Notes: generated from the sequence alone by a model not told the origin. 64,000 nucleotides of DNA from Patescibacteria group bacterium (GCA_048499955.1 JASNYX010000003.1:21785-85784); one strand, 5' to 3'. Shown: positions 22,500-29,537, numbered from the stretch's first letter. Numbers and translations: made by a program.

Positions 22500-22536
22500 G
22501 TTGTTCGATTTGAGTTGAATGCTTAAGATTTTAAAA

Positions 22537-22563
22537 AGGCGCTCTGTGAGCGCCTCCTTTGGG
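22537..22563 (+). terminator. Probable terminator hairpin after the DedA gene
   Basis: GGCGCTC-TGTG-AGCGCC followed by a TCCTTT run (weak T tract). Confidence 0.4.
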
Positions 22564-22755
22564 AACCGGAAAAGATGATACATCTCTCATAAATCCTCTC
22601 TTCCGCTTAAACTAAAAACTGATCCCGAGCATTTACAAGAGTTCAAAAACTCTTTAAGCACTTGAAAATGCCCGGGATTTGTAACTAATGCTCCTGTGGT
22701 TGTTTTGTATTTGTATCTCATGCTCATAATATAGCCCTAAAGCTAGAGTATGTAT

Positions 22756-22847
22756 TGACAATAAACTAACCATTTCATAACAAATACCTGACAATACGCA
22801 TTTTTCTAGCCTGTTAATAATCTGACAATAAGGTGATAAAATTATCA
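22756..22847 (+). promoter_or_regulatory. Three direct TGACAATA repeats (22756, 22789, 22823; 33-34 bp apart) plus palindrome TGATAA-AA-TTATCA (22834-22847) upstream of the ATPase-wHTH regulator gene
   Basis: Direct reading of the 365-bp intergenic region. The helical-turn periodicity suits a direct-repeat-binding winged-helix protein. Confidence 0.3.
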
Positions 22848-22864
22848 GGTACTGCCCAAGCGAA

Positions 22865-26195: not shown

Positions 26196-26296
26196 AGACT
26201 AGAGATCGCATTTCAGCCAAAAAAGTTTTGAAGTGGGATCTAAGAACAATGTTAACATACCGTAATATTTAGCAATATTCTTAATTTCTTGTCGGA

Positions 26297-26809
26297 TTAA
26301 TCTGCAGAAGCTTGTACAGTCACGTTGACTGATTGCTGTGTATAACTGGTTGATGATGTAGGTACTCCGATTTGTAAATCGAATACTTGTGATCCGCTGG
26401 ATGCAACAGATCCTGATAGAGTTTGATAGTTAGTAGTTAATGCTGTCCATGTTGGTGATGAATCGCAATCTGAGGTACAGAACTTATGAAAGTATTGATC
26501 TGTACTCTGAGTGGCTGCAAGAGTCCAAGCTGCAGAGTTTTGGCCTCTGATATTAATATCGGCGGTCACATTACCATTATTAGTTGCGGTTTGTGAATCG
26601 TTTACGCCATTTGTGGTTGTATCTTCAGTTCCGCTTGCGGCCATAGTTCCATATGAAACGCTACCATCTGATACTGAAACTGAAATATTTTGAACTGTAA
26701 CAGTTGCACTAACCGTCGCCGTTTCGGCTGCATCAGCATTAAATGAAGTCAAAAAGAATGATAATAGTAGGACTAAAACGACAGGGGCAGCTGGAATTTT
26801 CATATTCAT
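26297..26809 (-). CDS. Small secreted protein consisting of the roughly 130-aa domain shared with the C-terminus of the 761-aa neighbour
   Basis: Signal peptide. Co-linear similarity to 26844..29129 residues about 625-761 (SVSYGT/ISYGT, GQN..WTL, DQY.H.F, W..LTT.YQTL, QQSV.VT.QA). Confidence 0.45.
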   Translation of the reverse strand: MNMKIPAAPVVLVLLLSFFLTSFNADAAETATVSATVTVQNISVSVSDGSVSYGTMAASGTEDTTTNGVNDSQTATNNGNVTADINIRGQNSAAWTLAATQSTDQYFHKFCTSDCDSSPTWTALTTNYQTLSGSVASSGSQVFDLQIGVPTSSTSYTQQSVNVTVQASAD

Positions 26810-26843
26810 TATTCTGACATCATCTTTATCTATGTCAACGGTT

Positions 26844-29129
26844 TTAATTCTCGACGGCTTGGATTGTTACATCAACAGATTGTTGATTCGAGCATGAAGA
26901 AGTTGTCGGAGTAGTAATTTTTAAGTCGAAATCTATCGAACTTTCTGCGGCAAGATTTGTAGAAAGAGTTTGATAACTTGTTGTAAGAGGTGACCATAAG
27001 CTTCCACTGTTAGAAGAGAATTCGTGAATATATTGATCGTTTCCGTTTGTAGAAGATAAAGTCCAAGGGCAACCGGTGTTTTGTCCTTTGATATTTAAAT
27101 CTACTGAAGTGTTTCCAATGTTTGTAACGGTTTGAGTGTCGTTTTCGTCTTCAGGCAGAGTAGTATTTGAAGTATTGAAATTAAGAGTTCCGTACGAAAT
27201 GCTTCCGTCGTCAACCGTAACTGAAATGATTGTACTTTCTCCAATTGTCCATTGGGGAGTAACTACATAAGTGAGAGGAGCACCTCCTGTGGTTATTCGG
27301 AATTGGTAGATATCGCCGATTGTAGTGTTATCAGTTGCTTGCAGGTTCCACTCAATTTCGGTGTATTCGCCGTCATCCAAATCTATTTCATCTGCAGGGT
27401 TTTCGTCGTCTTGTATTCTGCCTGTTCTGAAGTCTCCGGTTGTTCTTCCTGATGGTGGATCAAGTCTTGCGGATGTATTTTCTCCTGAACTTGATATGTG
27501 GCTTGAGCTTGAAAGTATGATGGGTGCGTCCACTAGTCGCGCTCTTAAAATAACAGAAGCACCTGCAGGGTTTGAAGTTGTTGATCCGTTTGCTGTCATT
27601 GTAAAATCGGGTGCTGTGGTAGCGGTTCCGCCGGTTACGGTGTGGTCTGATAATACTAGCTCCGAGTCGTTACCTTGGGTTGTTCCGGATTCGTATCTCT
27701 CAGTATGGTTAGAAAAAGTTGCTCCTGTTGCTGAAATAGATTGCGCACTATAGCTTCTGGCATCGGTATTAATGGCGGATGCCACAATGATCATGTCTCC
27801 GGATGTAATTCCGGGGTTAGACGCCCCGGTTACTGACCACGATGTTCCCGCAGAGTCATCTGATCCGGAGGTTGCTGCAAGATCCCATATTTTCCCCGAT
27901 ACTCCTGAGTACCTTGATATTCTTCCGATTGATGAATTGCCTGACGAAATCGAAACAGATACGTTTCCTGATTCGAATCCCGTTGCTTCTCTGACGAAAA
28001 TTGTAGCAGTCACATTTCCGGAATCAGCACCGCTGCTACCTGCCCCGCCTGATGCCTGGTGGTTTTCAAGTGCAGTCCATCCATCGGGTGTTGAAGGGAT
28101 GCTAGGGGGGTGTTTGTTTGCTATTGCCAGCACTAATAGATCTCCCTCTGATATTTCGGTAGGGTAAGGAACTGAAATGAAGGTTGTTCCTTGACCGATA
28201 TTGCCTTCTGTTCCGTAAGAGATTGAACCTTCTTCAGGAATGTTCACCTTTCTGTAAGTTTCTTCGTCTGATTTTTTATACTCTAGTTGATATTGGTTTG
28301 AATCAGGATTTCCTGAATCTCCATCATTAAGCTGAATTCTTAAACGTGTGTTTATGCCGCCCTCTCTTGTAATATTCGTGTTTTGAGCAGCAATCCAAGT
28401 TGCATTAGATTCGTCACCGTCGTCTGATCTAAATCTGAAACCTGTTTGTTCAACCGGAATATAAAGAACATCCATTTTGACGTAGTCTACCGACATTGTT
28501 ATTGCTGCTGCAGCTTCGTATACACCCCAAACTACGATTCCGTTGTCGTCGATATAGTCCAAAATGTTTGAGGTGAGCGATCCGGTAATTGTTGTGTCGG
28601 TATTTGCGGTAATTGACTGGGAAGCGACTTGAGTCCAAGATGAGTTGTCTTGATAGTTTCCGTCGGCTGTTTTTACCCAGATTGTAAAGGTGGTTGTAGA
28701 AGAGGCATATCCTTCAAAGGTAAAGTCGAGTTGGTAAATTTCATCTTCGGGTTCAGTGATCGGCATTTCCATCCATAAAAATATTTCATCGCCTGACCCG
28801 GGGTTTATTGATGTAAATCTGGAATCATCAGAGGCTGAGATGGCAGAGTAATCACTATTTGACATTTGTGTGTGTGCATTTCTGTTTGCAGTAGCTCCGG
28901 CAAAAGGGAACACATCAACATCATCTCCCGATGCCCACCATTCTGACGATGAGTTGCAGCTCCCACCGCATATAGAAAAATCGTAGCTGGCAGTTGCAGC
29001 ATAAGCTGTGGGAATGTTTGTCGAATATTTATCGTCGAGAACAACAGAATCACTAGCCAGAAGCCAAGCAATCAGTATGGTCGATAATGCCAGTTTTATT
29101 AAATATTTTGAAACACTTTGTTTTTCCAT
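26844..29129 (-). CDS. Large secreted surface protein (761 aa), Ser/Thr/Gly-rich, with repeated FR.R.DDG.E... modules and a C-terminal domain paralogous to 26297..26809
   Basis: Signal peptide. Internal repeats (TGFRFRSDDGDESNATW.. and TGDFRTGRIQDDENPAD..). Shared C-terminal domain. Confidence 0.5.
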   Translation of the reverse strand: MEKQSVSKYLIKLALSTILIAWLLASDSVVLDDKYSTNIPTAYAATASYDFSICGGSCNSSSEWWASGDDVDVFPFAGATANRNAHTQMSNSDYSAISASDDSRFTSINPGSGDEIFLWMEMPITEPEDEIYQLDFTFEGYASSTTTFTIWVKTADGNYQDNSSWTQVASQSITANTDTTITGSLTSNILDYIDDNGIVVWGVYEAAAAITMSVDYVKMDVLYIPVEQTGFRFRSDDGDESNATWIAAQNTNITREGGINTRLRIQLNDGDSGNPDSNQYQLEYKKSDEETYRKVNIPEEGSISYGTEGNIGQGTTFISVPYPTEISEGDLLVLAIANKHPPSIPSTPDGWTALENHQASGGAGSSGADSGNVTATIFVREATGFESGNVSVSISSGNSSIGRISRYSGVSGKIWDLAATSGSDDSAGTSWSVTGASNPGITSGDMIIVASAINTDARSYSAQSISATGATFSNHTERYESGTTQGNDSELVLSDHTVTGGTATTAPDFTMTANGSTTSNPAGASVILRARLVDAPIILSSSSHISSSGENTSARLDPPSGRTTGDFRTGRIQDDENPADEIDLDDGEYTEIEWNLQATDNTTIGDIYQFRITTGGAPLTYVVTPQWTIGESTIISVTVDDGSISYGTLNFNTSNTTLPEDENDTQTVTNIGNTSVDLNIKGQNTGCPWTLSSTNGNDQYIHEFSSNSGSLWSPLTTSYQTLSTNLAAESSIDFDLKITTPTTSSCSNQQSVDVTIQAVEN

Positions 29130-29537
29130 TCCGGGTTTTGCTGAATCTAATGTTCATATTGTAAGTGATATTTAATTCTTAAGGAAATTTATTTTGGGAA
29201 AGTAACTTTAGATTTACTGTTAGGGCTGAAGCTTGAAACTGTGCACCCTATAGTATATGATCCTGCGACTAGAGAACATTTTGGCTGAAGTGTAATTTTT
29301 GAAATTTGCTTGATATTCAGGTATTTTTGGCAGGTCGAAGTGGTTGTTGCACATTAAAAACTCAAGTTAAACCGCAACATGTCGGGAGCAGATAATTAAA
29401 GATTCCGCTGGCTCAATTCGAGCAAGCACCAACAAAATCTTTTTTTATCTCTCCCGGCATGGAACGCGAATATTCCATTTTACTTTCTCATTAATACAAT
29501 CCGACAAGCTTTAGAACTTTCTTCGGAATTCTTCATT

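Follow-up and report, generated by a model that had tools for sequence, protein, structure and literature searches.

A conserved Patescibacteria gene cassette proposed to encode a donor-strand-linked surface fibre with a cohesin-dockerin anchor

The locus

The window analysed here is a stretch of 64,000 nucleotides (nt) from a Patescibacteria group bacterium (GCA_048499955.1 JASNYX010000003.1:21785-85784), with positions counted from its first letter. It carries five co-directional minus-strand genes with exported products, transcribed in the order F, E, D, C, B (29129 to 23875), which gene order and homology indicate to be a five-gene operon conserved in, and so far seen only in, Patescibacteria (the candidate phyla radiation, CPR). 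The open reading frame (ORF) coordinates of a first-pass annotation of this DNA were borne out; the six consecutive exported proteins that it counted become five, neighbouring gene A having no hydrophobic segment in a hydropathy scan. The five genes are listed below in transcription order, with lengths in amino acids (aa) and with immunoglobulin and transmembrane abbreviated to Ig and TM.

26844..29129, minus strand: gene F, 761 aa; signal peptide/anchor, Ser/Thr-rich and beta-rich passenger of ~590 aa, E-like domain at the C-terminus; proposed as the tip subunit (adhesin or cargo carrier)
26297..26809, minus strand: gene E, 170 aa; signal peptide and conserved N-terminal extension ahead of an 8-strand beta sandwich; proposed as the major (shaft) subunit
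25587..26195, minus strand: gene D, 202 aa; signal peptide, single PapD-like Ig domain (~31-148), amphipathic helix, TM helix at the C-terminus; proposed as a membrane-anchored chaperone or holdfast
24879..25535, minus strand: gene C, 218 aa; signal peptide and short N-terminal strand, then a six-Cys module joined by an acidic/Ser-rich linker to a C-terminal pair of dockerin-like EF hands; proposed as the terminator/adaptor
23875..24879, minus strand: gene B, 334 aa; TM1, Cys4 knuckle, TM2, cohesin domain, spacer, C-terminal amphipathic helix; proposed membrane socket for the C dockerin

The start codon of B overlaps the stop of C. For C itself, the ORF is open up to a TTG at 25574, to which it had at first been extended, and the most likely start is the ATG at 25535 (218 aa, as in gene callers). 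Databases begin E at Met3, giving 168 aa. A promoter and terminator scan of the region returned counts no higher than those in shuffled sequence, and the E-D gap holds no clear attenuator. One promoter-like element (TTGACA-16-CAGAAT with an upstream TG; 26811-26838, minus strand) occupies the 34-nt F-E gap and ends 2 nt before the ATG of E; E could be expressed from it independently and more strongly, with the caveat just given on such counts.

Conservation across the CPR

Homologues of E are numerous. A collection of 5.8 billion proteins yielded 643, of which the 120 best are ~170 aa long, are 57-76% identical and carry no Pfam domain; the named ones among these 120 come from Roizmanbacteria, Pacebacteria and WWE3. 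The E-family profile, run against 1.84 billion representatives, recovered 1426 clusters at 50% identity, and a genome scan located 79 E-family loci across many CPR lineages. By record title these include Roizman-, Woese-, Levy-, Davies-, Pace- and Collierbacteria, WWE3 and WS6/Dojkabacteria, together with Komeili-, Magasanik-, Uhr-, Nealson-, Staskawicz- and Wildermuthbacteria. Many metagenome-assembled genomes with the cassette bear titles such as "uncultured Gammaproteobacteria", "Pseudomonadales", "Bdellovibrionales", "Bathyarchaeia archaeon" or "Clostridia bacterium" (L007, L008, L010, L015, L058, L078 and others), titles that are evidently unreliable.

Synteny was assessed by searching the window proteins against all ORFs of 85 related loci, with ratios taken over the loci that have enough sequence to judge. 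E is followed by D in 66 of 68 loci, D by C in 55 of 63 (median gap 5 nt), and C by B in 43 of 47 (median gap 4 nt). A long F-like protein (228-1429 aa) lies just upstream of E in 45/63 loci and elsewhere in the locus in 7 more. The order E, F-like, D is found instead at L073:677-4493, L075:7004-10603 and L083:7319-9891, where the F-like protein combines a subtilase S8, a fervidolysin-type prodomain and a C-terminal E-like domain. Genome context thus establishes the five genes as a cassette conserved across the CPR, and because they form such a cassette the suggestion of a small self-assembling surface complex, made in the first-pass annotation from the cohesin/dockerin and paralogue pairs, is a fair reading. 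Within the window itself, HMMs (hidden Markov models) of B, C, D and E match only inside the cassette. Candidate paralogous clusters elsewhere in the window were rejected, the 764- and 335-aa genes being a copper ATPase set and the 1016-aa gene encoding an unrelated Pro-rich protein.

A domain shared by E and F, and an extension that only E carries

E aligns with residues 635-758 of F at 49% identity over 127 aa (E=7e-33), through the conserved blocks listed previously, and positions 42-170 of the E-family HMM match the C-terminal domain of F at 9e-41. The description of E as a free copy of that domain is accurate for the body of the protein and incomplete at its start, where E has an extra, near-invariant strand.

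26687..26728, minus strand: N-terminal extension of mature E (residues 28-41, AETATVSATVTVQN); nearly invariant columns; proposed donor strand
26847..27227, minus strand: C-terminal E-like domain of F (residues 635-761); body of the domain without N-terminal extension; proposed strand acceptor

The near-invariant mature N-terminal strand TATVTATVTVQN is present in nearly all short E proteins, and long F-like proteins are without it. Across all loci the short proteins begin, once mature, with x-T-x-T-V-T-A-T-V-T-V-Q-N and continue into the first body strand, ISVSVSDG; in the extension of E, small or hydrophobic residues alternate (A31, V33, A35, V37, V39). The family is split accordingly: short proteins match the profile from the signal peptide on, long ones only from position ~30-43, and in 68 of 69 long relatives (228-1429 aa) the E-like domain sits at the extreme C-terminus, starting at HMM position ~30-44. 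A 259-aa ORF (L068:6683-7462) that has the extension is an E gene whose ORF call begins too far upstream. Short E-like proteins (L077:1048-1512 and also protein P0498) have the domain body directly after the signal peptide, with no extension; they may be single-domain caps comparable to PamT (see the Pam pili below).

An AlphaFold2 (AF2) model of E (predicted local distance difference test, pLDDT, 89.6) is an eight-strand beta sandwich starting at residue 44. From the signal peptide to residue 43 the monomer model assigns no strand, with pLDDT 73-77 in the extension, while the segment before residue 43 ranks among the most conserved parts of the family. A Foldseek search of this model against the whole PDB gave no match at E<=0.001, and its ranking was led by CS20, PapE (prob 0.99, TM-scores 0.43/0.51), FimF, Caf1, FimG, CfaB and PapA. 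The shared domain of ~130 aa looks more like a pilin-type incomplete-Ig module than like a passive anchor domain, the role first suggested for it: both the extension pattern and the fold ranking are closer to chaperone-usher pilins. In chaperone-usher pili (Fim/Pap), shaft subunits bear an N-terminal donor strand, which is lacking from the pilin domain of the two-domain tip adhesin (FimH, PapG). The distribution of the extension between E and F follows the same logic, which we infer may carry over to these proteins by analogy.

Sequence searches return little for either protein. Gene F has no Pfam and no PDB sequence match; scanning 50 homologues of E against Pfam at E<=10 produced signal-peptide artefacts only, and HMMs of E or D against single Fim proteins were not significant. 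The passengers of F-like proteins vary, comprising subtilase S8 with a prodomain (three loci), DUF7483 repeats, BNR-like regions or nothing recognisable.

D, a PapD-like membrane protein

In the AF2 model of D (pLDDT 87.5), the signal peptide precedes one Ig-like sandwich (31-148), which is followed by an amphipathic helix and, at 171-192, a TM helix. The model and the hydropathy agree with the initial description of D as a signal peptide, beta domain and C-terminal TM helix.

25620..25685, minus strand: C-terminal TM helix of D (residues 171-192); AF2 helix 171-192, hydropathy segment 168-196

Among 50 D homologues, weak Pfam matches recur to NPCBM_assoc (31/50), fn3_5 (25/50) and PapD_N (17/50, best 5.9e-4), and PapD_C is not among the families listed; two homologues carry the JGI label "P pilus assembly chaperone PapD". 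With a profile built from nine genuine chaperones (FimC, MrkB, PefD, Caf1M, DraB, FaeE, FedD, CssC and one Serratia chaperone), hhalign aligned D over 104 columns (E 2.6e-4, probability 42%), a result compatible with distant chaperone homology and not proof of it. Sequence searches of the D and B families against PDB chains gave noise only. A pairing by eye of D K34/K143 with chaperone R8/K112 was rejected: hhalign does align the G-strand region, but with the Lys offset by two positions. The role of D as a chaperone is, on these comparisons, uncertain.

A top structural match of D is WxLIP, and this brings in a different account of E, F and D. The WxL clusters described in PMC10599100 share their architecture: a small protein made of the domain alone, a large one in which variable N-terminal domains precede that domain at the C-terminus, and an Ig protein that has its TM helix at the C-terminus. 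By that analogy the E/F domain would be a non-covalent wall-binding module, and E, F and D a fixed hetero-oligomer that shows the passenger on a static platform without forming a polymer, C and B being an accessory tether. Enzymes such as subtilases among the passengers favour such a platform, as do the loci, subtilase variants included, that have the E/F/D trio without C and B; so does the invariant W95-x-L97 (W-T-L) of E, whose second Trp motif is however W-x-x-L (W-T-A-L) and not WxL. No member (E, F, D or the 50 E homologues) matches Pfam WxL, DUF916 or DUF3324 even at E<=10, and D has one Ig domain where WxLIP has two. A static platform also fails to explain why the extension is confined to the small protein, or why a similar strand starts C and two WWE3 mini-proteins (see below). 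We regard it as unlikely, though by no means negligible, and the two accounts may share a mechanism, given that AF2 predicts a WxLIP strand inserted into WxL (PMC10599100).

C and B, a putative adaptor and its putative socket

The annotated segments of the two downstream genes are as follows.

25356..25382, minus strand: N-terminal strand of mature C (I52-I60, IEATIQISI); conserved in homologues; proposed capping donor strand
25221..25355, minus strand: six-cysteine module of C (C61-C105, CGNGIKEGGEECD...); all six Cys invariant
24882..25052, minus strand: dockerin-like domain of C, residues 162-218, with a pair of Ca-loop motifs; invariant C196 and C204 flank the second of them
24694..24741, minus strand: Cys4 knuckle of B (C47, C50, C59, C62), between two TM segments; Cys invariant or nearly; probably cytoplasmic
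24262..24504, minus strand: cohesin domain of B (Pfam-matched residues 126-206); conserved block extends to ~residue 250

The cohesin-like module noted in B is supported by the Pfam Cohesin profile (PF00963) at 25.5 bits against a cut-off of 24.1, and 25 of 28 homologues match it (best E 3e-9); the region has invariant N145, Q148 and D150 and an RLTGGLPNPG motif, and NCBI names the homologues "cohesin domain-containing protein [Patescibacteria]". The Cys4 ribbon also noted in B stands, its homologues giving weak DZR_2 and Prok-RING matches, and TM1 holds an invariant His. Because the inter-TM loop that contains the knuckle is K/R-rich (~4 K/R) and the short N-tail is nearly uncharged (~0.4 K/R), the likely topology of B is N-out, knuckle-in and cohesin-out.

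For C, the dockerin assignment is supported across the family and falls slightly below threshold for the window protein, which scores 21.8-22.1 bits against Dockerin_1, just short of the 22.9 cut-off. Dockerin_1 is matched by 19 of 26 homologues and EF-hand_1 by 15 of 26, a Komeilibacteria homologue (L013) reaches 30.9 bits across the whole model, and, on direct reading of the sequence, both 12-residue loops, DLNNDNIISTDE and DLNSDNECDSID, conform to the Ca-loop pattern of EF hands and dockerins. Profile matches across homologues thus support both cohesin and dockerin family-wide, and the two co-occur. Parcubacteria-type loci keep the pairing in larger proteins, Big_6 with Dockerin and Cohesin with Big_13: L013:8080-11837 and L053:8123-13326 each encode a larger Big_6 + Dockerin_1 protein (30.9 bits in L013) and two or three cohesin-related ORFs, those of ~580 aa being Cohesin + Big_13. 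The Cys repeat of C, earlier assigned to the Myxococcus type, has no TIGR02232 match at E<=1 and scores 18.6-18.8 bits against DUF4215, below the cut-off of 27, with 8/26 homologues matching.

The start of mature C resembles the extension of E. It is conserved as [VI]xAT[VI][KR]ISVCG[ND] in ~60 C homologues, and the two share an alternating pattern, hydrophobic-x-A-T-hydrophobic-x-hydrophobic. When an HMM made from the 19-residue extension of E alone was run, 19 C proteins stood in the top 60 non-E ORFs, where ~1.9 would be expected, a ten-fold enrichment (hypergeometric P=9e-16), and the matches in C proteins always fell at the mature N-terminus. Two WWE3 loci without C and B (L014, L019) have, directly after D, a secreted protein of 76-96 aa with a strand GSVxVVSATVT and a C-terminal amphipathic helix. 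Taken with the strand enrichment in C, these mini-proteins suggest that what follows D is usually a gene for a donor-like strand joined to a candidate anchoring device, which in most lineages is a dockerin. The mini-proteins themselves (L014:8155-8385 and L019:6279-6569) may be a minimal terminator/anchor.

Cohesin and dockerin domains, and the proteases on some F-like proteins, could call to mind a cellulosome-like scaffold in which the pair recruits degradative enzymes and E, F and D are unrelated neighbours. The sole dockerin of the cassette, however, belongs to C, a protein without a catalytic domain; B bears only one cohesin and is embedded in the membrane itself; what attaches F-like proteins is their E-like domain and not a dockerin; and E, F and D are syntenic with C and B across CPR classes. 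Such a scaffold is very improbable.

A relative might be found in the Pam pili described in Candidatus Mycosynbacter amalyticus (CPR, Saccharimonadia) in a 2026 preprint (bioRxiv 10.64898/2026.03.03.709456), of which the cassette could be the Microgenomatia/Parcubacteria form, a true pam operon homologue and no separate design. Both have been seen only in the CPR, with membrane-anchored PapD-like proteins and an anchor protein that has an N-terminal strand. The preprint reports language-model homologues of PamA in 304 further genomes, mainly Microgenomatia, one Roizmanbacteria protein consisting of an N-terminal domain (NTD) and a truncated-Ig C-terminal domain (CTD), and Roizmanbacteria and Pacebacteria F-like proteins of 320-360 aa have an NTD + CTD layout. 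Yet its text makes no mention of cohesin or dockerin, and it describes two-domain pilins that donate an inter-domain linker, two-domain chaperones and an anchor, PamR, made of two fibronectin type III (FnIII) domains and a TM helix (bioRxiv 10.64898/2026.03.03.709456). MMseqs2 matches to PamA/B are mostly restricted to Saccharimonadia (same preprint), as against the 79 E-family loci in many CPR classes, and no Pam entries appear among our PDB search results, though they may be missing from the PDB copy searched. We think a common operon quite unlikely.

A proposed usher-free fibre

Drawing together which domains are present and how conserved they are, where the extension occurs and where it is absent, the synteny and the fold classes, we hold it modestly probable that F-E-D-C-B builds a pilus-like, donor-strand-linked surface fibre or stalk with no outer-membrane usher; no usher-like gene is present in the cassette or its flanks. 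All five products would be exported by Sec, the evidence for which is their signal peptides and TM segments. Growth of the fibre would start on F, placed at the distal tip because its body lies at the extreme C-terminus without an extension, so that it could only accept a strand; it would display the variable passenger in an arrangement like that of FimH/PapG. E would be the repeating subunit, its extension TATVTATVTVQN inserting into the groove of the preceding subunit's Ig-like sandwich, and a fibre may hold one copy of E or many. D may hold newly exported subunits at the membrane, as chaperone or assembly platform. C, which has an E-like N-terminal strand and no acceptor body, is for that reason the candidate terminator that would cap the proximal end and halt growth; its linker would reach across the wall, and the fibre would be anchored by docking of the Ca-binding dockerin of C with the extracellular cohesin of B. 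In this scheme we infer every protein-protein contact, the polymer length, the chaperone role of D and the topology of B.

Several points weigh against such a fibre. The E family has no PDB-chain and no Pfam sequence match, and hhalign gave a probability of 1.8% for E as a sequence homologue of Fim pilins, which was rejected as evidence of homology. The very high conservation of E could have another cause, namely binding to some conserved component of the wall. For D, the hhalign probability is only 42% and there is a single Ig domain; known donor-strand chaperones have two domains and bind subunits in the cleft between them. An hhalign match of the E and C families (prob 89%) was driven by signal peptides and vanished once these were trimmed, so the similarity of their strands comes down to a short motif. 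The topology of B is read from charge bias. Finally, because C is missing in 8/63 loci and the subtilase variants at L073, L075 and L083 have no C or B match (with ~3.7-4.2 kb downstream of D searched), the cohesin-dockerin anchor is not universal.

A broader proposal, tentative and in our estimate somewhat short of probable, is that the cassette represents an undescribed class of usher-free donor-strand fibre across the CPR, with a dockerin-adaptor terminator seated in a dedicated membrane cohesin and a modular tip slot for an adhesin or an enzyme (e.g. subtilase). It might be one of the main host-contact organelles of Microgenomatia, Parcubacteria, WWE3 and Dojkabacteria, distinct from type IV and Pam pili, and the first natural cohesin-dockerin pilus anchor. 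No prior description of the cassette was found in literature on cohesin/dockerin in CPR, Patescibacteria, Parcubacteria or Microgenomates.

Implications for CPR biology

The CPR (Patescibacteria), a group of ultra-small bacteria, makes up a large share of bacterial diversity; its members are host-attached and most are unculturable, so that little has been learnt of the way in which they reach their hosts and hold on to them. The cassette is among the better-conserved CPR surface-protein gene sets, with functional annotation absent except for the domain-level name of the cohesin gene. It yields a concrete, testable model of a CPR host-contact organelle whose mechanism is entirely computational. 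If the fibre proposal is true, bacteria without an outer membrane would have a second donor-strand pilus design, more widespread than the first, and the cohesin-dockerin interaction would have a new biological use. F-like proteins would then be variable host-facing tips, useful as host-range markers, and the assembly could offer protein engineering a compact self-assembling display scaffold.

Neighbouring genes

Gene A borders the cassette on the side of B.

22865..23878, plus strand: gene A, 337 aa; AAA_22 + Trans_reg_C; neighbour, judged not part of the system

The first-pass annotation rightly read A as a Walker ATPase fused to a winged helix, AAA_22 and Trans_reg_C both exceeding Pfam cut-offs, and went on to place it divergently upstream as the regulator of the cluster. 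A is in fact convergent with B, their stop codons overlapping at 23875-23878, and no homologue at E<=1e-3 was found in the 85 related loci; on these two grounds it was rejected as a regulator or component of the cassette and lies outside the system. At the overlap (23875-23878) each transcription unit ends inside the other, with no intergenic terminator.

The flanking genes are unrelated, encoding a VTT-domain protein, a DAO-Rieske oxidoreductase, a Gmad2/Germane protein, DUF2238, Lnb_N and an RNase_T-GIY-YIG protein. Three ORFs outside the cassette may be described more closely: a DAO-type FAD-dependent oxidoreductase with a fused C-terminal Rieske [2Fe-2S] domain (19524-21032); a secreted 203-aa protein without a Pfam match, in which a Pro/Thr-rich linker lies between a His/Cys-rich N-terminal module and a C-terminal TM helix (21152-21763); and the 1016-aa protein mentioned above (46945-49995), with a long Pro-rich repeat tract (PPSQ/PTNP variations) and a J-domain-like C-terminal tail without an obvious HPD motif.

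Comparison with known systems

The cluster was at first held not to be assignable to any described system. As regards sequence relation this remains so; its design can nevertheless be related to Pam pili, to WxL clusters (PMC10599100) and to chaperone-usher pili.

Pam pili, like the cassette, have been seen in CPR only and are Sec-exported; they have Ig-like pilins joined by donor-strand exchange without an usher (features proposed from genes on the cassette side), PapD-like proteins with a C-terminal TM tether, a strand-less tip subunit, and a proximal anchor protein beginning with a donor strand, and in both the donated strand and its binding site, putative for the cassette, are the most conserved parts. 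Pam pilins consist of NTD, linker and CTD, whereas the proposed shaft subunit of the cassette comprises one 140-aa domain and its N-terminal strand, and F-like proteins have NTD and CTD but not the conserved strand. Where Pam chaperones have two domains the PapD-like D has one, and the place of PamR (FnIII x2 + TM) is split between the dockerin adaptor C and the polytopic cohesin protein B. The tip proteins of the cassette also bear large variable passengers; the two systems are set apart here, provisionally, by the published description of Pam.

WxL clusters of Lactobacillales/Bacillales (small WxL, large WxL and WxLIP = DUF916-DUF3324-TM; PMC10599100) have the same three-part architecture as E/F/D, and a strand of their Ig protein is predicted to insert into the shared domain (PMC10599100). 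The cassette differs in having no WxL/DUF916/DUF3324 Pfam signal, one Ig domain in D, an extension on the small protein and extra dockerin/cohesin genes, and in belonging to another phylum.

Chaperone-usher pili (Fim/Pap/Csu/CFA-I), whose pilins rank as the closest PDB folds to E, combine, as is proposed for the cassette, an Ig-like body with an N-terminal extension of alternating hydrophobics, a two-domain tip adhesin (FimH/PapG) with an extension-less C-terminal pilin domain, a terminator unable to accept a strand (PapH-like logic) and a PapD-fold partner in the operon. In contrast to them, the cassette has no usher or outer membrane; D is single-domain and membrane-anchored rather than a soluble two-domain PapD_N + PapD_C protein, and matches chaperones weakly, and E has no profile similarity to Fim pilins. 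TasA, TLP, DUF1102 tubes and the cannulae CanX offer another parallel, as small secreted beta-sandwich subunits that, in the envelopes of monoderms or archaea, polymerise via an N-terminal donor strand; the same is proposed for the cassette, which differs in lacking a Peptidase_M73/TasA Pfam signal and a SipW-type peptidase in the operon and in its other accessory genes.

Cohesin-dockerin modules outside cellulosomes are scattered in bacteria and archaea. The cassette resembles such pairs in the Pfam Cohesin of B, the dockerin-like double Ca-loop of C and the adjacency and translational coupling of the two genes. It departs from them in that its one cohesin belongs to a polytopic membrane protein bearing a Cys4 knuckle and its dockerin to a non-enzymatic adaptor, with variable Ca-loop spacing and a disulfide around loop 2; unlike a cellulosome, it has no multi-cohesin scaffoldin and no enzyme-borne dockerin. 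The proposed design is that of an usher-free donor-strand pilus, and its new part is the cohesin-dockerin anchor together with the modular tip.

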